DNA of 64,000 bases from Eledone cirrhosa (lineage: Eukaryota). The position numbers and the translations under genes were made by a program. The DNA is taken from the NCBI GenBank assembly GCA_964016885.1, contig OZ024741.1, positions 353,586,001 through 353,650,000 on the forward strand, read 5' to 3'. A model generated the notes under the pieces. It did no database searches. It saw nothing but the letters and a program-made list of their open reading frames with translations, and was not told where the DNA came from. Position 1 is the first letter of the stretch. Each line of letters opens with the position of its first letter. Shown piece by piece: positions 1 through 62,473 of the stretch.

Positions 1-344
1 GTACTCCTACAATTCCATCGGGAGTTAAGTGCCATTCCCTTCCTATTCTCTATTGTACGTATCTATGTCGCATAAACATACACACAGACTTCCCTCTGGG
101 TTTTTTGTTCCTGGTTTTTATCTTCCCTTATTTCTAAACTCCTTCCATTGCCCAATTGCCAGTTCCAAATAAAAGGTCAAGGATTCGAAAAAAAATTTCT
201 TAATTTAATTTGAATTCGTTTTACAAGAGATTACTAAGAACTAAAAGAAAGATAGAAAAATAGAAAGGAAGAATTGAAAAAATAAACACATAGAAAAAAA
301 GAAAGATTGCAAGGTAGAAATATAGATAGATTTATAGATAGATA

Positions 345-2435: not shown

Positions 2436-2436
<1 letters not shown>
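345..2436 (-). mobile_element. 5'-truncated L1/Tx1-type non-LTR retrotransposon (copy T1) in (GATA)n
   Basis: Frameshifted ORF2 fragments (DQSKAFDRVDH, YADD, LLGVWFG, CPRF..EETVAH). Minus-strand 3' end reads AATAAAGAAATT then TATC repeats; 5' truncation abuts (GATA)n at 2437. Confidence 0.93.
578..2433 (-). pseudogene. Degenerate Tx1-type ORF2 (RT plus C-terminal domain), several frameshifts
   Basis: ORF pieces 2017-2403, 1529-2146, 866-1444 and 578-856 align colinearly with the 1068-aa ORF2 of T2. Confidence 0.9.

Positions 2437-2476
<40 letters not shown>
2437..2476. repeat. (GATA)10 microsatellite between T1 and T2
   Basis: Read directly. Confidence 0.97.
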
Positions 2477-2477
<1 letters not shown>

Positions 2478-2707
2478 ATTTCTATTTATTTGCCACGAGG
2501 GCACAAAAGAAGGGGACAAATACACAGTGGGGGAGTTTACATAAAACGAGTAAAGAAAAAGGAATAACAATAATAATATAATAATAAAAAGTCCTCAAAA
2601 GGGAGGGGGCGTGTTCGGGATTGCACATACCCCCGAAAAATGTGCAACCCTTTTCGCAGGGGAAGCCCAGAGAGGAGGCGCTCCCCCTTTCCTCTTCACT
2701 TCTTCAC

Positions 2708-5700
2708 CTACAGAACAATGTAGAGAGAAGGCCCATTTACACGAGCCATTCTCGCTTCTTTCACCCACCTTTCATAAAACTGTCTGGGGCCAAGCACTTC
2801 TCTCTCCATCCTGATCCTTCTTCCGAAGTGGTATCGGAAGAAGTAAACCAGGTGATGGCCGGAGAGAAAGTCACCCGACCTCAGACCTTTCAGGCGCGTC
2901 CACCACACAACCTCTTTCATCATAGCTATTACGCACAGAAAGACCGCTTCTGCTTCGTTTCTGAAGGGAGGAGGCGGCTTGATGTTCACCACAGACTCGG
3001 CGGTTAATCGAATCGGCGCCACACGCGACAGCAGTCGTTCGACGTAGCCCCACAGATCGGCAACGCCCGGGCAGTGTACCAGTGCATGCGCAACGGTTTC
3101 CTCGTCGCGCACGCATCTGGGACAGATCTTTTTCGCTGGATCCCTGCCCGGGCGCCCGTGTCTGTAGAGCTTTTCTCGAACGGGCAGAGCCCCCCGGTAA
3201 CACTGCCAGGCTAGGGACCTCTGGAAGTTGTCCATGGGTCCCGGGCCGAAAGTTCTACCGAACAGGCTGGCCAGTTCGTCCTCCTCCATGCCTAGCGACT
3301 CTCCAAGGGTGTCGTCGCCCCTGCTAGCCACCAGCCCTCTATAGAATGTCGAGGTGGATTCTCCACTGACAGTCGGGTCCGCTTGCCAGATAGCCGTGAG
3401 CGCCTGGGCACACTCGGTGTGCCAGTTGCCCAGTTTTCTCGGTCTTTGCTTCACCCAGGATTGCAGCTCGGTGAGCGAGACGAGCTGTGGGAAGGCTCGC
3501 CTCACAAACGGGGCCCACACCGGCTGACCGGTGAGGAATACCTGTAGATGCCGTAGCCTCAATGCGTGCCTACGCATCAACAGCCACGGCATACCCAGCC
3601 CTCCTTTCGAAGGGTGCTGGCAGCAGATGGATCTCCTCACCATGGGAGGCCGCTTCTTCCAGAGGAAGTGGAAGAGCATGCGTTCCATGATGGTGATCTT
3701 TTCCTTGGGGCAAGGCACGACGGTCAGGCGGTAGCAGATGACGGACGCTATGTAAGCGTTCGTCACCTCCGCCCAACCTTTCAGTGATAGTTTGCACTTG
3801 GCCCACTTCTGGGTCAGCGCAAACACCCTGCTTGTCACCTCGCCCCAATTCTTCTCCACCTGGAGGTCCGGTCCGAACCAGACCCCGAGCAGCTTCACCG
3901 GGCCCTCCGTCCACCGCCCGACGACACCGTCTAACGGCATCGGTTTGCCCCTCCACGTTCCGAGTTGCAAACCGACTGACTTGTCCCGGTTCAGCCTAGC
4001 CCCCGTCAGCCTTTCGTATTCCTCCAGTAGGGTGGCGATCGCCCCGATTTCCGAGGCGTCCGCCACCATTACTGTTACGTCGTCGGCATAGGCCGAGACC
4101 GCTTTGTGCAATCCCGGTTCCAGGGGTATGCCCCGCAGCAACTCCAACTTCCGCAGCAGTGGCTCGAGAGTCAATACGTACAGAAGGGAGGAGAGGGGGC
4201 ACCCCTGTCTGATGGACCGGGTGATTTGAAACGGCTCCGCGAGGTAGCCGTTTACTTTAATCCTAGAGTAGATGTTGCCACTGTGCATGGCAGAAATCCA
4301 GCCCCTGAAAACGGGTCCGAAGCCCGCCGCCGCTAGCACCGCTTCCAGGTAACCATGGTCGACCCTATCGAACGCCTTAGATTGATCCAAGTTGATCAGG
4401 GCCCCACCAAAGCCGGGTTCGTTGCCAACCCTCTCTATGATGTATCGCATGAGGTGGAGGTTGTCGTGAATGGACCTGGACGGGATAGCGCATGTCTGCG
4501 CGTCTCCCACCAAACCACCCACCACAAGCGCCAACCTCTTCGCCAACACCATGGCCAAAATCTGTAACTCTGCATTCAGCAGAGTTATGGGCCTAAAGTT
4601 ACTTAAGTCGTCCCCCTTGCTCTCGTCCTTCCTCACTAGCGTGACCACGCCCTTGGTCACGGAACAGGGAATTCTCCCGTTCTGTTGCCAGTTGCAATAG
4701 ACAGCCTCGAGGAGTTCGGAGAACAAGACCGGCATAGCTAAATAAAGTTCGTATGGTAGACCATCGAGACCCGGAGATTTGCGTCTGCTGCATTGGCTGA
4801 GCGCTTCCCCGATTTCAGTGGCTGTGATTGGCCTTTCGCAGCACTCCGCTTCGCCGCTCGAAAGACGCGGTAGACCGTCGAGGTATGGACCGAAGTCCAC
4901 ATCCCCGTCCGGCCCCCCGCCCCCTCCGAACAGTCGAGCAAAGTGCCTTTGAAAGGCCTCGCACATCCGCTCAGGCTCAAGGATCACCCGTCCATCCTGG
5001 TCTCGCAAAGACCGAATGGTGGATTTAATCCCACTCTTGGCTTCTGTCACGCGGGCCCAGCTAACAGCTTTGGTCCCCTCGTTTCCTAAAGCACGTATTT
5101 TTCTTCGGACAACGCAGCCTTCGTGCTTCGCGTCAAAGAACTGGCTCAACGCCGTTCTAGCCGCTAACACTCTGGCTACGTCTCCGCTCCTAATCGCCTC
5201 TTCTAGTTTATCTGTTAACTCCCTTTCCTTCCTATTTCTATTCGCCGCTAGTTCCTTACTGTAACCTATCGAACTTACTCTAATCTCTCTCTTTAGAGAT
5301 ACCCACCACCTACTGTTGACAATCGCTCCCGTCAACCGCATCTTAACTAAGCTACTAATCCGGTTCCTGTAATCTTTCTTTGCCGGCAAGGACAAGTTCA
5401 TCTTCCAGTAACCGGGACCCTGTCTATGCGTTCTATCAAGGTTGACCACGCAGGTCACTAATTTGTGATCTGAATAGCCAACCATGATCAATTCTGGACA
5501 ACTAAATACGTCCCTATCCTTACTCCTAACCAAAAACCTATCTAGGTACGATCTAGATTGTCCACTGCGGTTTGCCCAGGTCCAGGTTGGCGCAGTTGGA
5601 CAATCTAGTCGAAATCTATCGACCAGGTCGAATCGATCGAGTAACCCCTTGAGGCTGCTACACCCCCCTCTATCGGGACATGCCCCTGCATAGTCCCAAC

Positions 5701-6153
5701 GCGCATCTAGGATTCCATTCCAGTCCCCCACTAAAAGCAGGGAACGCGACGTTCCTAGAAAAGTCTCCAGACGCTGGAAGAAGTCGGCTCTTTCAGCCCC
5801 GAAGGGGGCATAAAGACCGACCAGTCTGAAAGCCCCGCCTTCACCGCCTCCGACGTCCAGCACCAGTATTCGAGCCCCCGGGTCCGAGTGAACAATCTGT
5901 ACGTCGAGAGCCATACGTTTATCCAGCAGTACGGCAACTCCCCCCCCCCCCCCCCGCCTCCGGGTTGACAGAGAGATGCGTGCATCTCAAAGTCATCGAA
6001 GGCGGGAGCCAGCTGTCGCACGCTGCTGATCCGACTCTCGCAAACAACCATCACATCTATACTTCGTGACCTGAGTTCACTTAGTAGCTTTGCTTGCTTC
6101 CAAGCTGAGCCCAGGCCACGCGCGTTCAAACAGCCAACTCTTAATTGATCTAT
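2708..6153 (-). pseudogene. T2 ORF2: APE endonuclease + reverse transcriptase + C-terminal zinc finger; one frameshift in the C-run at ~5940-5955; no ATG
   Basis: LNARGL..CESR (5755-6129 frame) joins the 1068-aa ORF containing GDWN, YLDR, SDH, PGLDG, KAFD, QGCPLS, YADD and CPRC..EETVAH..C. Confidence 0.92.
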
Positions 6154-7965
6154 TTTGGTGTTGAAAGTGAAGAAAGAAAAGCACTTACCTCTCCGGGTTG
6201 TGTAATTTCCATGGCGTCAGGTGTGTTGGGTGGAGGGATGTTTTGTGGTGGTGTGGGGGTGCCCGAGTGTGGTTGGGTTGGGGTGTTTGGAGTTGTGTCG
6301 GGGTGAGGGGAGGTTATGGGGAAATCTTTCAAGAGGACGCGATTTAACGGTTTTAAACAGGGAGGGGTCACGTCCTGTCTAAATTGTTCTTTTAAGGAAC
6401 GATAAAGGTCCAGAGGGACCTTTATCATTTTTAAATGGGTGAAGTTCTCTGTTGAGATAAAGTTTGGCCCTTCGGTCTGCACCAAAGGGCTATTGTTTAT
6501 TAATTTAAACAGTTTTTTGTTTTCTTTATTTATATATGTGTATTGCAATGTCTTTTTTTGTGATGCTGTCAATGTTTCGGAGAGGGGAGGCGCAGATTTA
6601 TTTTTGTTTGTTGAGGGTGGGGTGTTTTTTATTGGAGTTGGTGTCTGTGTGTGGGTTATTTGTGGTGTGCTGGGTGTGTGCTTTCTTTTTTTTCTTTTAA
6701 CTTGTCTGAAGGCTTCTCCTCCTTCTTCTTCAGAAGTTGGGGGAAACTCTTCAGCGCTAGGTGGGAGGGACGTCGTGTCTGGTTTTTTTTTTGCGGGAGG
6801 GGTAGATTTGTTGCTGTTTTTTTTTATTATTTGTTTGGAATGCGTTTTGTGGTGGTGGTGGTGCTGTTTGTGTCGTGCTTGTGGTTGGTAATGGTGGTGA
6901 TGGTGTTTGTGTTGGTGATGGTGGTGGTGATTTTTGTGTCGAGCTTGTGTTTGCTGCTGGTGGTGGTGATGTGCTTGGTGGTGTTTGTATTTTGTTTGCT
7001 GTGTGTGGTATTAGTATATTTTTGGAGGTGGGTGGTGTTGGTGTACTGTTTGTGGTGGGTGTGGGCAATAGTCCTTTTTGGGGGACACGTTTCGGGCAGT
7101 TAGCCTTAATGTGTCCCGTTTCCATGCATAAATAGCATGCTGGTCTTCTCCCCTCTACAATTATATCTATTGGGGTGAGCTCATCCAGCCAGATGCGATC
7201 CGGGATTTGTGCTATTCTTTCGGGCCTCATTTGGACTAGTAGGTCGAGGCCCATTCCCAGAAACGCATCTCCGGATGCCTTCCCCATTGACAGCACTGTG
7301 TCCTCGCCCATGTCTATGAAGCCAGCAATAGCCCACCAGAAGTCCATTGTGGGCAGCATTGTTTGTATTTTTACTCTCTGTGTTCTTCTACCCATGTAGG
7401 AGGGATAGAAGCTGTATGTTGTCGATGAGAGTGGGCTTATGGAAAGCTTCTCCGCCGTTTCCTTGTCTTTTGTTAAGACCGAAATGCTGCCATAGAGTCG
7501 GTCCTTTCGTATGAAGAGAATATTCTTCATATAGTCTTTTAGGACCAACTCTATCTCCATTTGGCTGGGCTGTGCTGGCTTTCTTGTTTCGTTTAGGATT
7601 GTTCTGAAGAGAACTGTGTTCTCTGTTCTCGTTTTCTTGAATTCTGGGGGGGAGTTAATGGAAAACATTCCATTTTCCCCCAAAACAATGTGTTTCTTTG
7701 CTTCGGCCAGTTTTTCTCTGGCGGCCGTTAGGTCAATTGGTGTGTATGTAATGGATTGTTTTGTTTTCTGGGCGAAAGTTGCCCTGTTGTTATTTGTATT
7801 ATTTTCTGTTTGTTTGTTTTCCGTTTGCTCATTTTCCTTAACATTCGTTTTTTCATTTTCTTTGTTTGTTTCTTTGTCTAATTTTGTTGTAATTATTTTT
7901 TGTTCTTCAGACTTGGGGGGCGTGGCAGAGCTAATGGCAGACATGTCTGCCATCTTTTCCGCCAT
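6150..7965 (-). pseudogene. T2 ORF1 (gag-like, CX2CX4HX4C knuckle, Pro/Thr-rich); frameshift in a T-run near 6783-6825
   Basis: CYLCMETGHIKANC; first ATG at 7965. The 6150-6572 frame is similar to the T3 ORF1 C-terminus. Confidence 0.85.
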
Positions 7966-8617
7966 GCTGCCAAGAACGAAATTTTTCGGCAAAATTAGAT
8001 ATTTATTTTACCCCCTAAAAAGGGGGTAAATGCAAAAATGTTTCCCTAAATAACAGGGGTTAGTGTTCCAAATGTGTTGCACTGAAAAATTTATCCGGTA
8101 CTTACAATAGTAAGGGTAAATCCCGATAGAATAGCGGAGCCGATGTGAAGCGTGTCTTACTCTATCAAGATAGATAGATAGATACATGTAGAGAAAGGGG
8201 AAGTGAAGGAAGAAATAATTATGGGGAAAAACAAAAAAATATAGAAAGAAAAGAAAAAAGAAAAAAAGAAAGGAAGAAAGAAAACAGAAAGAAGGAATTG
8301 AAAAAAGAACAAGAACATAGAGAGACAAATGAGTGTAATTAATTATAATTTCATCTCTACTGTAATATAATTAATTTTAGAATTTGTCTTGAATAAACAA
8401 AGAAATAAATAGACAATGAAATAAGTAAATGAATAAATAATTAAATAATGCAATTAAAACTAAAACTGAAAGAAAACTAAATAAAGTGATTAAGTTTTAA
8501 TTGAATGTTTTCTAACTGAATCAATAAAATTGATTTCTTCTACACCGGCTCAAATAGAACTAGAAATGGTAGGGTGAGGAGAATATGAGGCTCAATGATA
8601 TTTATGTATATTATATC

Positions 8618-8827
8618 CTTCTTCTTCTTCTTCTTCTTCTTCATTTCTTTATTTATTTATTTTCCTTCTTTCTTTCTTCTTTCCCTTCCTTCTTTCTTTC
8701 TTTTCCTCCTTCTACTTCTTTCTTTCTTTCTCTCTTCTTTCTTTCTTTCTTCTTTCTTTCTTCCTTTTCCTTCTTCTTTCTTTCTTCCTTTTCCTTTTTC
8801 TTTCTTCTTCTTCTTCTTCTTCTTCTT
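8618..8827. repeat. (CTT)n/(CTTT)n polypyrimidine tract, probably the expanded tail of the adjacent RTE
   Basis: Read directly; abuts the RTE 3' end. Confidence 0.9.
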
Positions 8828-9530
8828 CGCCCACTTATTCCTGAAAAGGTCATGGGACAAGAGTCCTCAAACACTGCTTATAGCGAGTCTTGTCTGAAGC
8901 AACTGTCTCCAACTGATTCGGCTAGATCCCTAAACGAAACCAGGCGAGTTCATGGATGTTATTTAACCAGTGTCTAACCTTTGATCTCCTGCTGGTTGGT
9001 CTTGCCCGTAGAATTTGTCCAGCGATTCTTTTCTGGGACATGCTAACCACATGCCCATAGTTTTGGGGCTGCGATTTCTCAATTCGGAGAAGTAACAGTT
9101 CTATCTGATCTCTATCGAGTTACCTTACCCCAAAGATCCTTCGGATGAACCCATTTCGGCTGCTTGCATTTGCGATCGTATTCTTTTGGTCGTTACCCAA
9201 GATTCATGACCTTAGGTAAAGGTTCGCACGAATACCGAATTGAAGATTGTCAGTTATTCTTTTACACCTTCCTCCCTTCTTTTGATTACCGTATGCTGAA
9301 GTTGATACATTACTGCACTAGCTCCTGCAATTCTTACGCTTAATTCAACATCCTGTCTTCCATCACTCGTGAACACGATCCCCCAGATATTAGACCTTCT
9401 CCACCCGCTTCAATTGAACTCTATTCGCATGTAAAGCGCACTGCGCATACTTCTTTGAGAAACTCTTTGTTTTTGCAGCACTGATTTTTATTCCAGCCAT
9501 GCAGCGCACAGCATCAAACCAATCAAGTGC
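8828..9530 (-). mobile_element. Decayed 3' fragment of an RTE-clade LINE
   Basis: Manual minus-strand translation gives YLGIVFTSDG, GHESWVTTKRIRSQMQAAEM and LRIEKSQ..YGHV, typical of the RTE C-terminus; ends in (GAA)n. Confidence 0.8.
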
Positions 9531-9589
9531 AATTCTATGTAAATATTGATCTAATTGAAATGAAAGGGAAACAATTATGATAAGAAATT

Positions 9590-9730
9590 AGAGCGTTAGG
9601 TAAAATGCCTTGCAATATTTTGTTATAGCCCTTTATGTTCTGACAGCCTACCAAGGTCAACGATGCTTTTATTTCATTTGAGGTCGTTAAAATAAATTAC
9701 CAGTTATATACTGGTGTTGATATGATCGGC
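9590..9730 (+). mobile_element. Degenerate tRNA-derived SINE
   Basis: aggtcaacgatgcttttatttcatttgaggtcgttaaaataaattaccagt resembles the core of the SINEs at 10659 and 58155. Confidence 0.65.
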
Positions 9731-10658
9731 TTTCTCCTCCTCGAAACTGACAAGTTTGCTAACATTACTGATTTTAAAAACTCCATTATAGTGGACTACA
9801 ATCAACTCCTTTGAATCAACCTCGAAAGATTCTGAAATGTACAACAACTTCGTTGGTGCAATGAAGTCGAAAACAAACAATACATGTAAATATATATGCG
9901 TGCTCACATGATTCAATAGTACAAATTTCACAGTAATTTCTCTCTTTCTACCTATCTCTTTTTCTCTCCATCTCTCTTTCTCTCTATCTATCTTCCAACA
10001 CATCTCGCTATCTCATTTGCCTCCATGAACATAAGTATATAATCAGAAGATGACGAGTAAAGCTTGTTACATTGATGAGTTGACCATTCGTTTAAGTTGA
10101 TTGATGATTTCGCCATTTCCTAATGGGAAACATAATCCAAAATGGTCCACTGAAAATCACAGTAATTCTTTTTACACAGAAAGCTGAATCTAATACTCTT
10201 CTTACTGTAATTCTAATACTTTTCTTTAGATGAAACTAATCTTTTTGATGTAGTTTTCACATCTCACGCATATATTAACAGTTTATTGCCAAATAGAAAG
10301 AATACAGTCATTATTATATACACATGTACATAAATAACGACGAAATATTTTTTATACCGTCTGCAAAAAGGTTAGGATAAATTGCCTGAGTTGCCTTGAT
10401 CAAAGGTAACCACTAATTATTTTAGTAGCTATTTTCTTTTAATTAAGAATTGTGCTAGTTATATTCAGTTAGTTAACTAACTGATGTGTATAGAAATAGA
10501 TATCGCGTCTATAAACAAAACGCTATGTTACTCATTATTTCTCAATAACTATTCAATAACCAAGATTCATTACTCAATATGAATGACTCTATACTTATTA
10601 TCTCAATACTTATTGAATTCCTTAATTTAATACACTTAGACCTTTATATATATATAAC

Positions 10659-10842
10659 TGTTTCTACTTTTGGCACAAGGCCAGCAATTATCCCACTGTA
10701 TTACTGGTACTTTATTCTATCGACCCCGTAAGGATGAAAGGCAAAGTTAATCTCGGCGGGATTTGAACTCAGATCATAACGGGGCGTAACTCTATGCTTC
10801 AAAGCATGGCGTCTGACTCGCTACTGAAACTGCCAATCCGCC
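10659..10842 (-). mobile_element. tRNA-derived SINE (Pol III A/B boxes) in (TA)n
   Basis: Minus strand has a TGGCAG.. A-box-like motif, GTTCAAATCC B box and core GCCTTTCATCC..GGTCGATA..AGTACCAG; homologous to 58155-58332. Confidence 0.88.
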
Positions 10843-11283
10843 TATATATAATAACAATAAGTATGACACCAGGAAAAACACCTATGTATATATATATGTG
10901 TGTGTGTGTTAGTGTGTGTGTGTTTGTGTGCGTGTGTGTGTGTGGGGGGATAATTATAGTGACGTATTCCACTATTATTTTTGGTAAAGTGAGAGAAGCT
11001 CTATGCACACTAAAATCCTCAGCTCAAAAGGAGTTTAAATCAACGAATAAGTGTTCGAAAGTTAAAGTTCTTGTTGTTGGGGACAGTTCAGGTAGCAAAG
11101 CATTCGTCATTTTGAATATATATATGCACGGTCTCGTAACTCCGGGTGGAGCCTTAGTGGCACCGCAGTGGTGTGTCTAGGGCATTTTAAGCTCTAATGT
11201 CTGAACACACCACATTTAATCCATTTCTTCAATGGAACGATAGAAAGTGAAAGAAAAGAAGTGAGAAAGAGATGTAGAGGAAG

Positions 11284-11412
11284 AATCGACATCAGTACTA
11301 TACTGATACATTTTTTTTTCGACCTCGAAAAGATGAAAGGCAAAGTTGACCTCGGCAGGATTTGAACTCAGTAAGCAGAAATCCGCAACGAATGGCGCGG
11401 AATATCTTATCC

Positions 11413-11414
<2 letters not shown>
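11284..11414 (-). mobile_element. Partial related SINE
   Basis: gatgaaaggcaaagttgacctcggcaggatttgaactc shared with the other SINEs. Confidence 0.8.
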
Positions 11415-11475
<61 letters not shown>

Positions 11476-11477
<2 letters not shown>

Positions 11478-12061
11478 TTTCTGAATTTGTTTAGCAAGAT
11501 TCTTTATCTGAAAACGTGTGTTGAAACCGATATTGTTATACCTTGGGAGGGTCATGTTGCCAGTAAGACGCTATGTTTAGACAAATCACAGAGGCAATAA
11601 ACATAAATGAACTCCAACCAAAATTAAATAGAAAGCATGAATGGAATAGCAACATCACAACTTACAATTAAGGACAAAATGAAAACACACACACACATAG
11701 AACAAACAACCAACCAGTAACATGTAAATAAGCAAATAAATAAACAAATATAAACACACACAGACACCCGGATGTAACACATGCGCAAACTAAGCACACA
11801 ACACACACAAAAACAAGATGGCGTAGGACAGAACAAAGGAGAGGCACAAAAACAAAGAAAAGAATCCCCAGTCACTGAAGAGGTCAGAGAATGTGTAACG
11901 AAAGAACTTTGACAATATATGAACAATCGTCTGGTTGTGGAACCAACCAACCAACCGGAAATTTATAAATTCCTAAATTTATAAATTTAATTTATAATAA
12001 ATTGAAGTGAAAGCAACTGGTGCGTGTGTTTCTTATTGGCAACATGACCCTCCCAAAGTAT

Positions 12062-12068
<7 letters not shown>
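11476..12068. mobile_element. Penelope-derived non-autonomous element with inverted termini, in (TA)n
   Basis: gttataccttgggagggtcatgttgcc (~11535-11560) is inverted at ~12038-12064. Terminus similar to the Penelope 3' end at 59820-59900; degenerate hammerhead core at 11871-11913. Confidence 0.72.
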
Positions 12069-12106
<38 letters not shown>

Positions 12107-12111
<5 letters not shown>

Positions 12112-12752
12112 TTGCGAGGCTTTTGATATGAAATCGTGTGTCGAAACAAATATTGTTATACTTGGGGAGGGTCATATTTGTGTAATATTTATTGCCAGAA
12201 TTAATAACAGAACACACTCACTGTTTGGTTGGTTTTCGCTTTTCGCTTCTGTGTCTTTTATATCGGTTAATTTAATTTATTCGGTCCCCAATGTTGCCAT
12301 TGACTGACCAACGATAAAAAATACAGATACAATATAGACACAAACACATATATATAGTCTATGAAATTTCTTTCGTTGCATATCTGCAACATCGTCAGTG
12401 GTGCTATTGTTTCCTCCCGTTGCATTGTATTTGGCGTAGAAAATACGATGCAACAGGAGGAAACATTTGGCGTTGAAAATAAAATGCAAGGGGAGGAAAC
12501 AAAAAATAGCACCACTGACGATGCTGCAGATGTGCAACGAAAGAATTTTGATAGACTATATATATGTGTTTGTGTCTATATTGTATCTGTATTTTTGACC
12601 GTTGGTCAGTCAATGGTAACATTGAGGATCGAATAAATTAAATTAACCGATATAAAAGACACAGAAGCGAAAAGCCAAAACCAACAAATCAGTGAGTGTT
12701 CTGTTATTAATTCTGGCAATATTACACAAATATGACCCTCCCCAAGTATAAC
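12107..12752. mobile_element. Palindromic (inverted pLTR) Penelope derivative
   Basis: 12155-12430 is the reverse complement of ~12440-12752; 12107-12430 matches 59820-60135 in direct orientation. Confidence 0.85.
12506..12559 (+). ncRNA. Minimal hammerhead ribozyme-like motif (mirror copy on - strand ~12353-12407)
   Basis: CTGACGA, stem II (GCTGCA/TGCAAC), GAAA; stems I and III imperfect. Confidence 0.55.
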
Positions 12753-12754
<2 letters not shown>

Positions 12755-12848
<94 letters not shown>

Positions 12849-12989
12849 GTATATATATATATGTATATATATATGTATATGTATATACATATATATGTAT
12901 ATGTATATGTATATGTATACATATATATATATATGTATATTTATATATATATATGTATATATATTTATATATATATATATATATACATA

Positions 12990-13040
<51 letters not shown>

Positions 13041-13088
13041 ATATATATATACATATATATATACATATACATATATATATACATATAC

Positions 13089-13120
<32 letters not shown>

Positions 13121-13126
13121 GTATAT

Positions 13127-13172
<46 letters not shown>

Positions 13173-13310
13173 GTATGTATATATATATATATGTATATGT
13201 ATACATATATAGATATATATACATATATATATACATATACATATATATATACATATACATATAGATATATATACATATATATATACATATACATATATAT
13301 ATACATATAC

Positions 13311-13344
<34 letters not shown>

Positions 13345-13350
13345 GTATAT

Positions 13351-13419
<69 letters not shown>

Positions 13420-13620
13420 TGTATATGTATACATATATATATATATATATGTATATATATGTATATATATATATATGTATGTATATATATATATATGTAT
13501 ATATGTATATATATATATATGTATATATATGTATATGTATATAAATATATATATATGTATATATATGTATATATATATATGTATATATATATATACATAT
13601 ATATATATATACATATACAT

Positions 13621-13651
<31 letters not shown>

Positions 13652-13653
13652 CA

Positions 13654-13704
<51 letters not shown>

Positions 13705-13721
13705 GTGTGTATATATATATG

Positions 13722-13814
<93 letters not shown>

Positions 13815-13826
13815 ATATATATATAC

Positions 13827-13857
<31 letters not shown>
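12755..13857. repeat. ~1.1-kb complex (TA)n/(TATG)n/(TACA)n microsatellite
   Basis: Read directly. Confidence 0.98.
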
Positions 13858-14029
13858 CTCAATATGCAATATGCAGTGGAAGGCACCTAGGTGGCTGGGT
13901 TTATGCAGAGGTTAGGTGCACAGAACTGGAAATATTCATTAGTTAAGCAAAACAAGACAACAAATTTCACAAGGAAGACATTTTTAAAAGATTGTCAACA
14001 TAGTCTTAGTTTAATGTAAGGAATGTAGA

Positions 14030-14030
<1 letters not shown>
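13854..14030. repeat. Outer left arm of an interrupted foldback element
   Basis: Reverse complement of 59011-59188 (e.g. ggaaatattcattagttaag / cttaactaatgaatatttcc; tttaatgtaaggaatgtagaga / tctctacattccttacattaaa). Confidence 0.92.

Positions 14031-14078
<48 letters not shown>
14031..14078. repeat. (AAT)16 at the T3 3' end
   Basis: Read directly. Confidence 0.97.
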
Positions 14079-14079
<1 letters not shown>

Positions 14080-14321
14080 TTTTCTTTATTAACCACAAGG
14101 GTTCACATAAAGTAGACATTAAGGACAGTACAGGACAATACAGGACGGTACAAATGGGCATTTCTGCGTGTAAAAAAACAGAGGTTGAAATAAAATAACA
14201 AAGAAAAATTCCCCAATAGGGGGGAGACTTCCAAGGGACATTTGTGGAGAAAGCCCATTAAAAGACCACAGTGGCCCTGACCACCAGGGCAAGTGCCCTC
14301 TCCCAGTTTTCCACCTTTAAT

Positions 14322-17300
14322 TTACAGACACATACTCAGAGAAGGCCCATTCATTCGGGCCATACTTGCTTCTCTCACCCATCTTTCAACAAAATGCTGG
14401 GAAGAGAGCACTTCCCTCTCTACCCTGATTTTCCTTTTCAAATGAAATTTGAAAAAGTTAATCAGGGCATCACCGAAGAGGTAAGTGCTCGTCTTCAGCC
14501 CTTTCAAACGTGTCCACCATACTATCTCTTTCGCCATGGCCACCAGACAGATAAAAACTGCCTGCCCTTCCAGGCTAAAGGAAGGGGGCGGGGCAATCCT
14601 CACGATGGACTCAGCTGATAGCTGGATCCATCCTACACGTGACAGCAGGTGTTCGACATAAACCCACAAGTCAGCAATGCTCGGACACTGGACGAGTGCG
14701 TGCAGGACGGTTTCGTCGCCCTGCGCGCATCTCGGACATGCCCGGCTGACGGCACCTCCATGCCTGTAAAGTTTATCCCGAACTGGCAAAGCTCCTCGGT
14801 AGCACTGCCAGGCCAGGGATTTCTGGAAGTTGTCCATACGCCCCGGCCCGAAAGTCCTTCCGAAGAGATTGGCTAGTTGATTTTCGTCGACGCCTAGAGT
14901 TTCTCCAAGTACGTCGTCGCTCTTCCCCTCCACTAATCCCCTATAGAACGCCAAGGTGGAGTTTCCACCGATCACATTGCCCGATTGGTCGAGGGCTGTG
15001 AGCGCCTGAAGACATTCCAGTCTCCAAGCGCTCCCTCTCGGTCTTCGCTTGACCCAGGACTGCAGCTCCGTCAAGGAGACGAGCTGGGGAAAAACGTGTC
15101 TTGCAAACGGCGACCACACCTGATCACCGTCGAGGAAGAGGTGGAGATGTCGTAGCCTGAGCGCGTGTCTGCGCATTATCAGCCACGGCATGCCCAGCCC
15201 TCCACGTAGCGGGTGTTGACAGCAGATGGACCGCCTGACCATCGGAGCGCGTCCCTTCCACAAGAAGCGAAAGAGCAAACGCTCCAGCGCAGTCAGGCGG
15301 GGCTTAGGACAAGGTACGACGGTCAGGCGGTAGTAGATGACGGATGCGATGTACGCATTCGCCACCTCCGCTCCACCTTTCAGGGATAGCTTCCTCTCGG
15401 CCCATTTCTGGGTGAGAGAAGACACCCTGCTCGTCACCTCGTCCCAGTTTTTGTCCGTCTGGAGGTCTGGACCGAACCAGACCCCTAGCAATTTAACCGG
15501 TCCGTCCGTCCAGCGCCCGGCGACGCTGTTGGACGGCATGGACCTGCCTCTCCAGGTGCCGAGCTGCAGGCCCACTGACTTTTCCTGGTTGATCATTGCT
15601 CCTGTCACCGCTTCGTATTCTCTTAGTGTAGTGCCGATCGCCTCGATGTGTCTGGCGTTCGACACCACTACGGTGACATCGTCGGCATACGCTGACACGG
15701 ATCTTCCGCATCCTAGTTCGCGCGGGACCCCCCCTCAACGTCTCCAGTTTGTGCAGTAATGGCTCGAGAGTCAATACGTACAATAGGGACGAGAGGGGAC
15801 ATCCTTGGCGGACCGAGCGCATGATGTTGAACGGTTCCGAAAGGTGACCGTTCACTCTCACTACAGAGCAGATGTCGCTGTGCATGGCAGCGATCCAGCC
15901 TCTGAAGACGGGCCCAAAGCCAGCCGCCCTCAGGACTGCCGTTAGGTAACGATGGTCGACCCTGTCGAAGGCTTTCGACTGATCTAAATTGATCAAAGAC
16001 CCACCCGTGCCAGGTTCCCTAGCTACCCTCTCTACGATGTATCGCATGAGGTGGAGGTTGTCGTGGATGGATCTGTCGGGAATGGCACATGTCTGTGCCT
16101 CTCCCACCAGACCACCAACGACAAGCGCCAACCTCTTTGCTAGCACCTTGGCCAAAATCTTGAACTCTGTGTTTAGCAGAGTTATGGGCCTAAAATTATC
16201 TATGTTATCCCCCTTGTTCGGATCCTTTCTCAGCAGCGCCACCGCTCCTCGGCTCACAGAGCTGGGAATTCTCCCGTTCTGTTGCCAGTTGCAGTAGACG
16301 TCCGCCAAGAGGCCTCCGAACAAGTTTGGCATTTGTACGTAAAGTTCATAGGGCAGACCATCCAAACCAGGCGATTTACCCCTTGTGCAACTAGTCATTG
16401 CATCCCGTACTTCAGCGGTTGTTATCGGCTTTTCGCAACACTCCGCCTCAGTGGCCGAAAGCCGCGGCAGTCCGTCGAGGTAGACACTAAAGTCCATTCC
16501 TCGATGCGGCCCGCCACTGCCCCCGAACAGTTGAGCGAAGTGTCGCTGAAAAGCTTCACACATTTTCCCGGGATCGAGTAGCATGTGCCCGTCGTGGTCC
16601 ACCAAAGACCGGATCGTGGCTTTGTTGCCACGACGCGCCTCCGCCACTCGGGCCCATTGAACGGCTTTCGTCCCCTCGTGTCTGAGAGCACGCACCCTAG
16701 CTCTGACAACGCAGCCTTCGTGCTTTGCATTGAAGAATTGGTCAAGGGCCAATTTCGCCGCAAGTACGTCGGTCGCGATGCCTTTGCTAAGCGCCTCATC
16801 TAATTTTCTAACTAATTCTCCCTCTGCTCTATTTTTCTCTATTGCTAAAGTCTTACTAAACCTAATGGACTCTATTCTAATTGCTCTTTTCAGAGCAAAC
16901 CACCACTTGTTGTTGACGATGGCCCCCGTCAACGCCCGCTTAACTAGTTCGCTAATCCGGTTTCTGTAGGCCTTGCGCGCTGGTAAGGACGCGTTTAACT
17001 TCCAGTAGCCGGGTCCTCGTCTATGAAGCCTATCTAAGTCAAGCACACAGATCACGAATTTGTGGTCCGTGTAGCTGACTATCTTGAATTGTGGACAGCC
17101 TATGCTAGACCTATCTATTTCCCTACAAAATACTCTATCTAGATATGATCTGGATGACCCTATGCGATTTGTCCAAGTCCACATTGGTACATTCGGGAAA
17201 TCCATTCGGTACCTGTCAGACAGTTCAAAACGTCTGAGCAGGTTGGTGAGACTCTTGCACCCTCCTTCCCTATCCACTAATCCCACACAATCCCAGCGTG

Positions 17301-17742
17301 CATCTAAGATCCCGTTCCAGTCGCCCACTAACACTAAAGAGCGGGACGTTCCAAGAAAGGTCTCCAGACGCCGGAAGAAATCAGGCCGCCCTGCTCCTGT
17401 CGGGGCATAGACGGCCACTAACCTGAAAGCTTGCCCGTCTCCGCTGGTCACGTCCAGCACCACCAACTTACCTTCTGGGTCCAGGAAGATGGCCCGTATG
17501 GCAAGATCCAAACCTCTCCGAAAAAGCACAGCAACTCCTCCCCCCGATCCCGGACGGCTGGGAGATGCGTACACATCGTAGCCGCCGAAGATCGGTGCGA
17601 AAGCCTGTGCTTCGGAGATTCTGGTCTCGCTGATGGCCACTACATCTATGTTTAGTGACCTGAGGTCGTTGAGCAGGTGGCCCTGCTTCCATGACGACCC
17701 CAAGCCACGCGCATTTATGCTGCCTATTCTGAGTGAGGTCAT
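14322..17742 (-). pseudogene. T3 ORF2 (APE + RT + zinc finger); single frameshift near the C7 run at 15728-15734
   Basis: MTSLRIGSINARG, GDWN, TDH, KAFD and QGCPLS in the 749-aa part; YADD and CPRC in the 458-aa part. Confidence 0.93.
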
Positions 17743-19790
17743 GTTGAAAAGTAGTGGAAAAGATGGGAAAGACCACTGACTTTACTTCTCGTAGGGGAAG
17801 GACGGCTTTTCCATCCTTTTCACTGCTTGTGGCCTCCTCAGGAAGGATGTCCTTATAAATCCTCCTGGAGAGTGCTTGTCGGAAGTCTCCGATGTCTTTG
17901 GGGAATTTTTGTTTTAGTGTCATGTACGTTTTCTGTGTGATGCGAGTGATTTGTATGTGTGGAGGTGGTGTGAATTTTGGGGTTGTTGTGTAGTCTTTTT
18001 CTGTGATGCTGGTGTTGTGTTGGATATAGTGTAATAATTGCTTGTTGTTCAAATTTAATGCTGTGTAGTGTGTATCGTTTTGGTTGTTTTGTTTTGTTTG
18101 CGTTTGTTGTGGGTTTGTTTCTGTTTCGCATTTTGGTGACTTTTGTGGTGTAGGTGATGGTGGTGCTGGGGATAATGATGGTGATGGTGTTGGTGTTTGG
18201 GTTGATGGGGTTGGTGATGCTGGTGTGGATGGTGGCATATCTGTCCTAACTTTTTTGTTTCTTAGTTTATTTGTTTCCCTCTGTATTTTGTTTTTGGAGG
18301 GGGAAGGAAGAGAATTTTTTCTTTTTTGGTTTCTTTTTTTTTTTCCGGATATCGTTTCCCACTCCTCGTCGTCACAATCTGTCTCCAGTTGTGATAGGCC
18401 GGGGAGTGGAAAATCCTCCACAGTCGTTAGTTTTGGTTGTGGTGTGGTGGATGGTGTAGGCGCTGGTGCTAGTTCTGAAGCGTTGGGTGGTGGTGGTGTT
18501 GGTTTTGCTGGTGGTGGTAGTGGTGTTGGTTTTGCTACTGTTGCTGGGGTTGTTGCTGTTATAGTTGCTTCTGTTGTTGCTGCTACAGTTGTTGCTGCCA
18601 TCTCTGCTACTGGTGGTGTTGATGGTTGTGTCACTGGGGTGGGTAGGAGAGGTGGCCTCAACCTTTTAGCCTGAGGGCAGAAAGCCCTTAGGTGGGTTCC
18701 TTCACCACAAACGACACACCTAGGTCTTCTGCCCTCGACAATTACCGTGAGGTGGCTGCCGTCAGTGAGGTCTATTACCTCTGGGATCTCCTCAATGCTT
18801 TTTTGGTCCGCTTGGATCAGGAGCTCCATCCCAGATCCGGACCAGTTTTCCTGCTTTTCTTTTGCTACTGCTATTATTTTCGTGTTGGCTTCGATGCCGG
18901 CGAGGACAGCCGCTATTAGCCAGGGAATTTCGATGGCCGGTGGAACGTGGGTCACCCTGATCTTTACGAGTCTCTGGCCACAATAGCTTGGGACGAGTGT
19001 GAAGTCGTCACTTTTTAATGGGGCCATGGAGTGTTCTCTAGCCTCCTCTGGTGTTTCAAAGAACACATCCACGGTTCCATACTTTTGCCCACGTCTGATG
19101 TGGTTTTTTCTTGCCCACACATGTCCCAAAGCTTTTTGGATTTGGGACTCGGATGCCCGTTCCACTCGGCGCGATTTTACATTTATTGTTCTATACAACA
19201 CGGTGCATAGGCGCCGATGCTCCATTTTATTAGGTGGGGGGGGGGCTGACCCTGTACCCATCTTTCTTTACCATTTGTTTGGCATTTTCTAAATCCTCTT
19301 GAGTTACCGTGAACGCTTCGAATTGTTTTGCTACGATGGCGAAACTGAGGGTCGGTTTTATAATGTCATTGTTGTTGTTGTTGCTATCGTTATTTGTGTT
19401 AATCTTAATTTTAGTTTCAGTTGTGGTGGTGGTGACGTCAGTCGTCTTTGGTGGGGAAGAGTCCATTTTGCTTGATTTCATTTCGACATCACGAGTTAAT
19501 TTATTTTTTTCTTCTTTTGTTTCTGTTGTCGCGGTGGTGGTGGGGGTGGTGGTGGGGGTGGTGGTTGTCGCGGTGGTGGTGGTGGTGGTGGTGGTGGAGG
19601 CTTTAACACCTGCAGTCATTGGTAATGGCGGGAAATGAATGTCTGCCTGAGACAAATTTAAAATATTGCTACTGCTTATATTTTTTTTTGTGTTGGCAAA
19701 CGTAGTAACATTTACAATGGTGGTGTCGGTGTGAGGTGTTATTTTGTGAGGAAGGCTTTCAGCTGCTTCGTGCAGAGGGGAATTAGCCAT
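17468..19790 (-). pseudogene. T3 ORF1 (CCHC knuckle, Pro/Thr-rich); frameshift at the G-run 19235-19245
   Basis: ORFs 19230-19790 and 17468-19261; CVVCGEGTHLRAFC; similar to T2 ORF1. Confidence 0.85.
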
Positions 19791-19998
19791 TTTTTTTCAA
19801 AGAAATGTTTGGATAATAATAAAAGTTAAAATTTTGGGCACAAGGCCCCAATCTTTTTGGGTGTCCTTTTCGGAAAACAATGTATGTGTGCTTATAAACA
19901 GTTAACAATAAAATTTTCCATAAATGACAATTTTTAACAAACGGAAATAACAAACCTTTGCGGAGCTCACGATGATACGATATACTACGTAGGTCGCC

Positions 19999-20066
<68 letters not shown>
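19999..20066. repeat. (TAA)n between the T3 5' end and Dong-like A1
   Basis: Read directly. Confidence 0.97.
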
Positions 20067-22113
20067 GGTGCCAGAGTGGTTGACAAAAGGTACCACAGTT
20101 CTGATAATGAAAGACCGAATCAAGGGTAATGATGTTACCAACTATAGACCTATCACATGTCTGTCCGTAATGTGGAAACTGTTGACGAGCATTGTGTCTG
20201 AGGAAATCTACCAAATCTACAAAGGACCAGTTACTTATTGATAAGATGGTAATGGGGAATTGCAGGAGGAGACACACTGATCTTGCCATGGGATGGATAG
20301 ACTACAGAAAGGCATTTGACATGGTGCCTCATTCTTGGATCACCAAAAGCCTGGAGATCTTCAGGGTGGCAGATAACATCAGACAGTTGCTGGGCAGGAG
20401 TATGGGATCCTGGGAGACAGAGTTGACATCAACTGGAGTATCCTTGGGAAGCGTGAAGATCAAGAGAGGTATCTTCCAGGGAGATAGCCTGTCCCCTCTG
20501 TTGTTTGTCCTTGCCCTGATGCCCTTGACCATTATGCTGCGAAAAGTGAGAGTAGGATACAAGTTGGGAAAGGGAGAGCTTACCATCAATCACCTTCTCT
20601 TCATGGACGATTTTAAGCTCTTCGGGAAAAGTGAGAAGGAGTTGGATGTGCTTGTTGACACTGTCCGTATTTTCAGCAGTGATATATGTATGCAGTTTGG
20701 TATTAGTAAATGTGGAGTCATTGTGATGAGGAGGGGTAGGTTGAGCAGAAGTAACGGGATCCAGATACCAACAGGTGAGATGATAAAGGAAATTGACTCT
20801 GGGGAAGGATACAAGTATTTGGGCGTTCTGGAGGCTGATGGCATAAAGAACAAAAAAATGAAGGAATTGTTAAGAACTGAATACATTCGGAGAGTAAGGA
20901 GCGTATTGAAGTCACATCTGAACAGCAGAAATGCCATAAGCGCAGTAAATTCCCGAGCTGTGTCTATTATTAGGTACGGTGCGGGAATTCTGAGATGGAA
21001 TGTTGCTGAACAAAAAGAAATGGATAGGAAGACTAGGAAGCTATTGACTATCTACAACATGTCCCACAAGAGGAGTGATGTCGATAGACTCTACCTAAGG
21101 AGATCTGAGGGTGGAAGAGGTCTTATCAGCATAGAGGACTGTGTTCAGATGGAGAAAAACAACCTATACAAATACGTGACCTATAGTAAGGAGCCAATCC
21201 TCAGAACTGTACTGAAGGAGGGGACAGTAGGCCAGGGGATGTCCAAGGAGGAAATAACATCAAGGAGGAAGAGCAGCCTTAAGGGCAAATCCCTTCATAG
21301 TACCTTCTTTGAGAAAACTGAATTTAGAGATCCACAGACATGGAACTGGTTGAGAAGAGGAGACCTCAAAAAGGCTACAGAAGGAATGCTAATGGCTGCG
21401 CAGGAGCAGGCCCTCAAAACGAAGTGGTTGAAGCACCATATTTACAAGGAGGAGGCTAGCCCACTGTGCAGGATCTGTGGAGAGAGAGAGGAGACTGTGG
21501 CTCACATTGTGTCCGAGTGTAAACACCTAGCTCAGACCCACTATAAGGGCTGGAGACACGATGTGATGGGCAGGGTGATCCACTGGCACCTGTGCAAAGT
21601 AAACAATTTACCACATTCTGAGAAATGGTATGAGCATAGGCCAGAGGCGGTGATGGAGAACAATCAGGTGAAGGTGCTGTGGGATTTTAGGATACAGACG
21701 TACAAAAAACTGGAACACAATAGACCTGACCTGGTGGTTGTGGACAAAGAAAAAAGATCGTGTCTGATTGTGGATGTGGCCTGCCCTTTCGACACGAGAG
21801 TGCAAGAGAAGGAGAGGGAGAAAATTAACCGATACCAGGACCTAAAGTGGGAGGTGAAAAGGATTTGGAACTGCCATGAAGTCAAAGTGATCCCGATTGT
21901 CATAGGCGCACTGGGGACTATCTCCAAAAGTTTCCAGGGATGGTTAAAGAAAATCGGCCCCTTCACGCTTTTTGGAACGCTTCAAAAGGCATGCTTGCTT
22001 GGAACAGCAAGAACCCTCCGATACGTCCTGAATATCTGAGGCTGCAGGTAGTGGCATGATATTCATTCCAACGGACTTTCCAGTTAACCAACATCAATGA
22101 CTGAGATTCAAGG
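20067..22113 (+). mobile_element. 5'-truncated R4/Dong-type retrotransposon, family A (A1)
   Basis: Starts in NYRPITCL region; ORF 20192-22039; short 3' UTR followed by (AAT)n. Confidence 0.93.
20192..22039 (+). pseudogene. Truncated RT + CCHC + restriction-like endonuclease ORF
   Basis: DYRKAFD, QGDSLSP, FMDD, YKYLG, CRIC..ETVAHIVSEC, RHD, RPD..DV..K..Y. Confidence 0.92.
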
Positions 22114-22122
22114 AATAACAAC

Positions 22123-22201
<79 letters not shown>
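22114..22201. repeat. (AAT)n tail/target
   Basis: Read directly. Confidence 0.97.
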
Positions 22202-22203
<2 letters not shown>

Positions 22204-22469
22204 GTAGGAGGTGAAAAGGATTTGGAACTGCCATGAAGTCAAAGTGATCCCGATTGTCATAGGCGCACTGGGGACTATCTCCAAAGGTTTCCAGGGATGC
22301 TTAAAGAAAATCGGCCCCTTCACGCTTTTTGGAACGCTTCAAAAGGCATGCTTGCTTGGAACAGCAAGAACCCTCCGATACGTCCTGAATATCTGAGGCT
22401 GCAGGTAGTGGCTTGATATTAAATCCAACGGACTTTCCAGTTAACCAACATCAATGACTGAGATTCAAG

Positions 22470-22470
<1 letters not shown>
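22202..22470 (+). mobile_element. Very short 5'-truncated family A copy (A2), followed by (AAT)n 22471-22514
   Basis: Near-identical to 21844-22113. Confidence 0.93.
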
Positions 22471-58154: not shown

Positions 58155-58332
58155 TGTTTCTACTTTAAGCACAAGGCCAGCAATTACCCAGTGCATTACT
58201 GGTACTTTATTTTATCGACGCCGTAAGGATGAAAGGCAAAGTCAACCTCGGCGGGATTTGAACACAGATCGTAAAGGGACGTAACTATGCTGGAAAGCAT
58301 GGCGTCCGGCCCTCTACCGATACTGCCAATCC
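58155..58332 (-). mobile_element. tRNA-derived SINE inserted in (TAA)n
   Basis: Minus strand: TGGCAGTATCGG A box, GTTCAAATCC B box; homologous to 10659-10842; (AAT)n on both sides. Confidence 0.9.
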
Positions 58333-58370: not shown

Positions 58371-59188
58371 TTAATAATGTTTCGCTATTCCATATAATGT
58401 TTCTGGATCAAATGATTATAGATCATTATTGATCTGGTTCAGTTGAAGATATTTAACTTAGGTACAATTAGAGCAGCTCATCGGAACTTCAAAAGGAATA
58501 TAAATTAAAATAAAGAATGTTACATGAATGTAATGTTCCATATATTGGTATTTCACTATGGTGTCCTAGATATATCTTTTGTCTGCCATAGTCGAACTGT
58601 ATTCTTCTGTCGAGGCTGCATTGTGTGAGATCTGCCTATGGGTAACAAGATGACCGCCAATGGACATATTTAGCTTACTAATTAGAGGGTGGTTTCAGGG
58701 GAAGTAACTCCTCGAGAAATTAGAAATTTGTGCTAAATTTTTTAATTGAGGGAGGTAACTTATAATTATCTAAGTTAGCTATAACTATTTAACTTATTTG
58801 ATATAAGTAAAAAGAGGAATTATAACATTCTTTCTTTATTTTAATTTATATTCCTTTTGAAGTTGCGATGAGCTGCTCTAGTTATACCTAAGTTAATTAT
58901 CTTCAACTGAATCAGATCAATAATGATGTATAATCATTTGATCCAGAAACATTATATGGAGTAGCGAAACAATTGTAAACGGACATTATTAATATTATTA
59001 TTATTATTATTCTCTACATTCCTTACATTAAACTAAAACTATGTTGACAATCTTTTAATAATGTCTTCCTTGTGAAATTTGTGGTCTTTTTTTTCTTAAC
59101 TAATGAATATTTCCAGCTCTATGCACCTGACCTCTGCATGAACCCAGCCACCTAGCTGCCTGCCACTGCATGTTGAACATTGAGCACA
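58371..59188. repeat. Inner left arm, loop and complete right arm of the foldback element
   Basis: 58379-58523 is the reverse complement of 58822-58971; 59011-59188 is the reverse complement of 13854-14030. Confidence 0.9.
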
Positions 59189-59710: not shown

Positions 59711-62275
<2,565 letters not shown>

Positions 62276-62303
62276 AAATACGGTGAAAGCTTATAATTTC
62301 TAA

Positions 62304-62473
<170 letters not shown>

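Follow-up and report, generated by a model that had tools for sequence, protein, structure and literature searches.

What leads related retrotransposons into different simple repeats? The question is raised by a 64-kb stretch of the Eledone cirrhosa genome (hereafter the window; contig OZ024741.1, positions 353,586,001 to 353,650,000), in which three related minus-strand long interspersed elements (LINEs) lie in microsatellites of two kinds. T2 and T3 are full-length copies, and T1 is truncated at its 5' end; T1 and T2 are bounded by (GATA)n, and T3 by (AAT)n. Microsatellite choice by APE-type LINEs has been described as not well understood (PMC3812793, 2013; published work is cited here from excerpts). 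We postulate that differences in the endonuclease and pairing of the element RNA with the nicked target both contribute.

Two LINE lineages in (GATA)n and (AAT)n

The elements, their open reading frames (ORFs) and their flanking tracts are listed below; RT denotes reverse transcriptase and UTR the untranslated region.

321..344, no strand: imperfect (GATA)n repeat at the 3' junction of T1
345..~2433, minus strand: T1, a 5'-truncated, degraded LINE of the T2 lineage, retaining the second half of RT, the C-terminal region and the 3' UTR
2436..2476: (AGAT)10.2 tract that forms the 5' junction of T1 as well as the 3' junction of T2
2477..8167, minus strand: T2, full-length two-ORF LINE of the GATA lineage
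2708..6153, minus strand: T2 ORF2, encoding an APE endonuclease, RT and zf-RVT and frameshifted in the C-run 5940-5955
6150..7965, minus strand: T2 ORF1 with a zinc-knuckle-like motif; frameshift near the T-run 6782-6792
8168..8184: (AGAT)4.2 at the T2 5' junction
14031..14078: (AAT)16 at the T3 3' junction, after a 171-bp repeated element (13860-14030)
14079..19998, minus strand: T3, full-length two-ORF LINE of the AAT lineage
14322..17742, minus strand: T3 ORF2 with APE (intact), RT and zf-RVT; one frameshift near 15728-15734
17468..19790, minus strand: T3 ORF1 region; frameshift at the G-run near 19235
19999..20066: (AAT)22.7 at the T3 5' junction, followed by a plus-strand, 5'-truncated R4/Dong-type element

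All six junctions lie on the repeat of the element's own lineage, the six coming from three insertions, with T1 and T2 in one tract. Each of the three copies carries the same repeat at both ends in one orientation. The original prediction had T2 bounded by (GATA)n and T3 by (TAA)n at both ends, which is borne out by the flank tracts read in the window, and every motif that it quoted was found as written. Perfect AGAT runs of at least about 16 bp occur twice in the window, both at T1/T2 junctions, and perfect AAT runs of this length occur 14 times (516 bp, 0.8% of the window). None of the 26 perfect AT runs of at least about 16 bp in the 64 kb carries a Tx1-type LINE. The 171-bp element preceding the T3 3' tract has a second copy at 59012-59182, likewise adjoining an AAT run.

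Both full-length copies carry frameshifts at homopolymer runs, and at the frameshift site of T3 ORF2 other copies have one letter fewer. In T2 ORF2 an ATA occupies, as we infer, the place of the start Met of T3 and of the relative P0175. A splice-donor-like AG/GTAAGT is found on the minus strand at 6183-6192, near the end of T2 ORF1 and just before ORF2.

T2 and T3 contain PF03372, PF00078 and PF13966, corresponding to an N-terminal APE, an RT and a C-terminal zinc-binding region. With two ORFs, no long terminal repeats and 5'-truncated copies, T1, T2 and T3 belong to the L1 group of APE-type non-LTR retrotransposons. In the Tx1 clade of this group, ORF1 carries a gag-like CCHC zinc knuckle. 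T2 ORF1 matches PF00098 at 18.8 bits (E 0.0017), under the curated cut-off of 20.8; the T3 ORF1 piece has no PF00098 match, though by eye a Cys/His motif can be aligned. Membership in the Tx1 clade is likely, the label resting on the original prediction, on known features of the clade and on the activity of the L1-Tx1 class in Octopus vulgaris (PMC13282606, Table 1).

T2 and T3 had been described as sister elements aligning almost residue for residue. Their ORF2 products are indeed collinear, but they are not near-identical: 759 of 1135 residues agree (66.9%), and the APE, with 136 of 239 identical (56.9%), is the most diverged domain of ORF2. Identity amounts to 180/274 in the linker, 184/240 (76.7%) in the RT and 259/382 in the C-terminus. 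ORF1 is the most diverged part altogether, with 31% identity over 196 amino acids. T1 and T2 share 79.8% of nucleotides and 78.6% of amino acids, and their clade received support of 100/100 in a nine-row tree. T2 further grouped with protein P0002 of Argonauta hians in three trees (98/99, 99/95 and 97/97). In approximately unbiased (AU) tests on eight rows, whose groups were chosen after the trees had been seen, a T2+T3 clade was rejected (p = 4.5e-5), and a position of P0002, flagged as a long branch in one of the trees, outside T2, T3, P0001 and P0006 was weakly rejected (p = 0.038). The closest named protein is from Argonauta hians, and the named relatives are hypothetical or RT-domain proteins.

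A sister relationship of T2 and T3 is rejected on the T2+P0002 grouping and the AU test, T2 being nearer to T1 and P0002. Since T2 groups with the Argonauta protein and T3 stands apart, their divergence is old and they do not form a minimal pair. Judged by these alignments and trees, T2 and T3 are cousins, and a recent target switch between near-identical enzymes is not what they represent. Barring horizontal transfer, the separation of their lineages is likely no younger than that of the host from Argonauta. The proposal of a natural pair for mapping specificity, taken as a minimal pair, is not supported, as 103 APE residues and 96 of 185 four-fold degenerate sites differ; what the flanks and the ORF2 alignment do support is its core, two related L1-group LINE lineages in different microsatellites. 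Among the relatives, a Patella caerulea (limpet) cluster, P0016, comprises no fewer than 11 near-identical proteins whose locus tags run consecutively, suggestive of an array in tandem and perhaps specific to one site.

Beyond the window, T3-like sequence is abundant and high-copy in four sequencing runs with three organism labels; read-level comparison covered these 4 of the 24 listed runs. In run X1, possibly the source sample, coverage depth over T3 drops toward the 5' end, as expected from 5'-truncated copies. A total of 1085 raw reads extend past the ends of T3; since none can be attributed to one particular end, they are left out of the evidence. In run X5, under another organism label, one contig (record 24, depth 160) matches T3 from position 19606 to its 5' end and beyond it over the full 18 bases of flank offered; 15 differences are found, 9 of these listed inside the element. 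With a GATA flank the count would rise by 10 or more, and with an AT flank by 9. Over the T3 region 14061-20016 in the same run, ORF2 bins reach a depth of about one million and most ORF1 bins only hundreds, which suggests subfamilies that have ORF2 in common but an exchanged or much more divergent ORF1. Scans with the ORF2 C-terminal alignment confirmed 0 of 128 pattern matches in viral contigs and 0 of 112 in metagenome contigs. A 3'-end motif matched all three copies in the window, its only 3 matches there, and gave 0 matches in 100 shuffles. Thirteen metagenome loci with this motif were dropped as chance, with an ORF2-like protein in 0/13 and a following GATA or AAT tract in 0/13; one of them, L006, has a short AAAT run after the motif, and two share only a 30-nt match with T1.

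Candidate residues in the endonuclease

The structure of the T3 APE was modelled with 70 sequences, the T2 APE being split by its frameshift. The model (pLDDT 93.4) adopts the fold of the human L1 endonuclease (L1-EN): Foldseek ranks 1-12 are L1-EN or L1 ORF2p, with a best E of 5.8e-20, and TRAS1-EN and R1Bm-EN are absent among the matches listed. A phmmer search with the T3 APE likewise returned L1-EN variants as best matches (E 1e-5), and residues were mapped onto L1-EN. In the L1-EN-DNA crystal, base contacts are made by Pro197, His198 and Asn118, and the hairpin T192-S202 enters the minor groove (PMC8565326). The corresponding segments are as follows.

5549..5581, minus strand: T2 hairpin loop TWANRSGQSRS, equivalent to L1 T192-S202
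17146..17178, minus strand: T3 hairpin loop 189-199, TWTNRIGSSRS
5801..5803, minus strand: T2 Phe codon at the L1 Asn118 / R1Bm Tyr98 position
17398..17400, minus strand: T3 Thr115 codon at the L1 Asn118 / R1Bm Tyr98 position
5672..5692, minus strand: T2 loop YAGACPD, from the L1 Arg155 position
17269..17289, minus strand: T3 loop 152-158, CVGLVDR, from the L1 Arg155 position

Two stretches had been singled out as candidates for target recognition, the WTW hairpin and the segment before S/TDH. The WTW loop aligns with the L1-EN hairpin and is in this respect a DNA-contact loop, but only 3 of its 9 inner residues differ between T2 and T3, including the Pro197 position (Ser in T2, Ile in T3). 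At 6/9 it is more conserved than the APE on average, and it is as variable among T3-side relatives (ANNSGTSR in P0001, which is T2-like; SKRDGSSR in P0175), and is therefore not lineage-diagnostic. When the Tx1L hairpin was grafted onto L1-EN, nicking was altered and Tx1L specificity was not conferred (PMC1950540). On these three grounds the hairpin was rejected as the sole determinant. The stretch before S/TDH is divergent indeed (2/8 identical), but it lies partly on a strand in the T3 model (E218-221), and the base contacts given in the published excerpts do not include it; it is a weaker candidate.

Two other sites would be better candidates than the hairpin, as far as alignment can tell: the Asn118/Tyr98 position and the 152-158 loop. 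The former, position 115 in T3, is the first dot after YAP in the shared motif of the original prediction. It is Phe in T2 and P0002 and Thr in T3; among 7 other close relatives covering the site, 5 have Thr, one Ile and one Cys, and none has Phe, while distant homologs have Asn in 46 of 69 cases. Mutation of Tyr98 in R1Bm shifted the preference for the +2 base, and Phe occurs there in R1 relatives (PMC1919474); the position is also close to Asp130 of TRAS1 (PMC1919474, PMC2868851). In the 152-158 loop, ACPD at 155-158 is found only in T2 and P0002 among the relatives compared, and L1 Arg155, at the start of the equivalent loop, touches DNA downstream of the nick.

Proposed nicking and RNA pairing, and the alternatives

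At all three 5' junctions the repeat restarts at A after T (AGAT, AGAT, AAT). The T3 3' junction reads AAT and then G, and those of T1 and T2 read GAT/A or GATA/, with a one-base ambiguity. From the end of an AATAAA hexamer to the 3' junction there are 6, 8 and 6 nt in the three copies, none of which has poly(A). Cleavage usually occurs 10-30 nt beyond the hexamer. Given this short spacing and the lack of poly(A), transcripts would end inside the downstream repeat. Folding of six 3'-end RNA sequences against shuffles gave no stem that stood out (z -1.26 to +1.10). In target-primed reverse transcription (TPRT), the nicked target strand primes reverse transcription.

The explanation we favour, at what we judge to be even chances, is that T1 and T2 lie on (GATA)n and T3 on (AAT)n since each APE prefers to nick its own repeat, read-through RNA then pairing with it. 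Orientation and TPRT indicate that the nicked strand would be the A-rich one (GATA or AAT). The junctions would place the nick between T and A (GAT/AGAT and AAT/AAT), the TpA step that L1 also uses (PMC8565326), in which case the targets would share AT/A and differ at positions -4, -3, +2 and +3. The discriminating surface may be the cleft downstream of the nick, where no single loop would decide but position 115, loop 152-158 and the tip of the hairpin (S-G-Q in T2, I-G-S in T3) jointly. A transcript ending inside the downstream repeat would carry a few repeat units, which could pair with the nicked strand and set the site of priming. This explanation is favoured by T1 and T2, which are 21% apart in protein and both in GATA. 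The six junctions, three of them 5' junctions for which a 3' tail is no explanation, the flank of the X5 contig, the L1-EN-like fold, the residues at position 115 and at 155-158, and the strong divergence of the APE within ORF2 also count in its favour. Tx1L-EN alone is sequence-specific in vitro (PMC1950540), and pairing between primer and RNA contributes to targeting in L1 (PMC3649969) and has been proposed as part of targeting for SART1 and R1Bm (PMC7265360).

Several points weigh against it. There are only three insertions, two of them in one tract, and target fidelity is read from these and one X5 contig, which is a single collapsed record in which an AAAT, AAG or ATC flank would cost only 6 differences each. 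T1 lies downstream of T2 in the same tract and lacks its APE; both could have arrived jointly. The residue pattern tracks lineage and not target, any of the 103 APE differences could serve, and APE domains may diverge faster than RT anyway. A short interspersed element (SINE) in the window has a 3' end like the LINE 3' ends, with a common CCTTGTG core. Its copy at 58155-58332 has (AAT)n on both sides in T3's orientation, the copy at 10659-10839 lies in (TA)n, and that at 11293-11371 is partial; found in two different repeats, it hints at a third specificity or a less strict one, and it would also fit a third lineage. L1-EN reads DNA almost wholly via the backbone (PMC8565326), point mutants of L1-EN kept L1 specificity (PMC1950540), and so did most R1Bm point mutants theirs (PMC1919474).

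The main alternative, possible though in our view rather doubtful, is that the target is inherited through the RNA: both APEs would nick any AT/A step in AT-rich repeats, and the read-through repeat RNA would select the nick that is primed. A lineage would then perpetuate the repeat of its source copy and could switch target with no change in protein. The AATAAA spacing and missing poly(A) fit this, as do the ATA common to both targets and (TA)n and the SINE with a Tx1-like 3' end in two different repeats. In L1, moreover, four matching bases are enough to prime (PMC3649969), and the LTx chimera with altered nicking is still constrained at integration. Yet a memory held in RNA only should drift, and GATA has been kept by T1 and T2 across their protein divergence; the APEs changed in a lineage-specific manner at known contact positions, Tx1L-EN is specific without RNA (PMC1950540), and AATAAA is here a putative signal read from the sequence. 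A broader form, in which octopod LINE targets are RNA-programmed, with a loose AT/A-nicking endonuclease steered by the read-through repeat units of the source locus, seems to us unlikely; if true, it would amount to a naturally re-programmable LINE.

We consider it improbable that the preference is simply loose, insertions going to AT-rich repeats of several kinds or next to older elements and the apparent sorting being due to the small sample. The small number of insertions, the shared tract of T1 and T2, the position of T3 in a chain of R4/Dong-type elements supplying many AAT runs, and the SINE copies in different repeats would all be accommodated. The only two perfect AGAT runs of the window, both at T1/T2 junctions, the empty AT runs, and the AAT-type 5' flank of the X5 contig from another organism speak against it. 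It is more improbable still that ORF1 or the C-terminal region sets the target by tethering the particle to chromatin or proteins that are specific to the repeat. ORF1 has diverged more than any other part, and a guiding role of ORF1p has been proposed for SART1 and R1Bm (PMC1919474), but tethering leaves the base-level phase of the junctions unexplained, and ORF1 is fast-evolving and of low complexity in any case. Hardly credible, finally, is the idea that the elements made the repeats themselves as slippage-built 3' tails. Although the 3' ends run directly into repeat with no poly(A), the repeat is also present at all three 5' junctions, including that of truncated T1, and is therefore not explicable as a 3' tail; the T3 3' tract, furthermore, comes after the 171-bp element, whose second copy also adjoins an AAT run.

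Neighbouring elements and known systems

The surroundings of the three LINEs are rich in other repeats. From 22513 to 58114 there is a head-to-tail array of an element which we take, from its RT and restriction-like motifs, to be R4/Dong-type. It has a 4912-bp unit, with six full copies that are 99.8-99.9% identical and have frameshifts in common; besides these, the array opens with a 5'-truncated copy and closes with one that has an internal deletion, and every copy ends in (TAA)n. This array is the product of recent tandem duplication or assembly collapse and not of independent insertions. A second R4/Dong-type family at 20067-22470, 5'-truncated and with 36% amino-acid identity to the array family, lies on T3's (AAT)n in the opposite orientation and carries a 271-bp duplication of its own 3' end. 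Within the T3 5' UTR, at 19810-19860, a motif resembles the LINE and SINE 3' ends, with a stretch rich in A and T and a short TTA repeat after CCTTGTG; it could be an internal signal, or else a short element that was captured. Between AAT-rich runs, a fold-back element at 58379-58985 has 140-bp terminal inverted repeats that are 95% identical. A minus-strand RT-like ORF at 59800-62310 (PF00078, E 1.2e-5), Penelope-like by eye, lies between (TA)n tracts, and a palindromic short element at 12110-12750 is related to it.

That Tx1-type lineages occupy different microsatellites is already known from fish and crocodilians, so the value of the locus lies in a testable pair and not in surprise. With endonucleases that are 57% identical, and targets that likely have AT/A in common and four positions of difference, T2 and T3 are a closer test pair than L1 and Tx1L. 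They yield a brief ranking of residues and allow a clean test of protein against RNA in the choice of repeat. Our additions are the lineage analysis, the re-ranked residue list and the protein-versus-RNA contrast. Neither (GATA)n nor (AAT)n as a Tx1 target, nor any octopus Tx1 target, was found in the literature searched, which left out Repbase reports and Kojima and Fujiwara 2004; the excerpts of PMC13282606 and PMC8967140 contain no mention of octopus Tx1 targets or of (GATA)n or (AAT)n for Tx1.

The nearest precedents are the Tx1-type LINEs Kibi on (TC)n and Koshi on (TTC)n in teleost fish (PMC4494074) and, in crocodilians, Tx1 families whose targets are (TTCC)n or (TTTC)n (PMC4494074, PMC3812793). 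As here, related Tx1-type APE LINE lineages prefer different microsatellite units; the targets here, however, are AT-rich, (GATA)n and (AAT)n, and the likeness is one of targeting. Dong, of the R4 clade, shares T3's repeat, (TAA)n (PMC3812793), and R4/Dong-type elements lie on T3's tract; those in the window differ from T3 in having restriction-like endonuclease motifs and the opposite orientation on the tract.

With the Xenopus Tx1L and human L1 endonucleases (PMC1950540, PMC8565326), T2 and T3 share the fold, the catalytic motifs and, probably, the TpA nick, and they keep the same 11-residue T192-S202 span as human L1. Differences from L1 include the positions of Asn118, where T3 has Thr and T2 Phe, of Arg155, where they have Cys and Tyr, and of Lys203, where Tyr is found. 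Unlike L1 and Tx1L, T2 and T3 have no poly(A) tail, and their targets are repeats instead of T-tracts or Tx1D. R1Bm, TRAS1 and SART1 of the silkworm are likewise APE-type LINEs in which target reading is influenced by the hairpin and by a residue at or next to the position of Tyr98 (PMC1919474, PMC2868851) and RNA-target pairing aids priming (PMC7265360). These three belong to the R1 clade with rDNA or telomere targets, whereas the T3 model is nearest to L1-EN.

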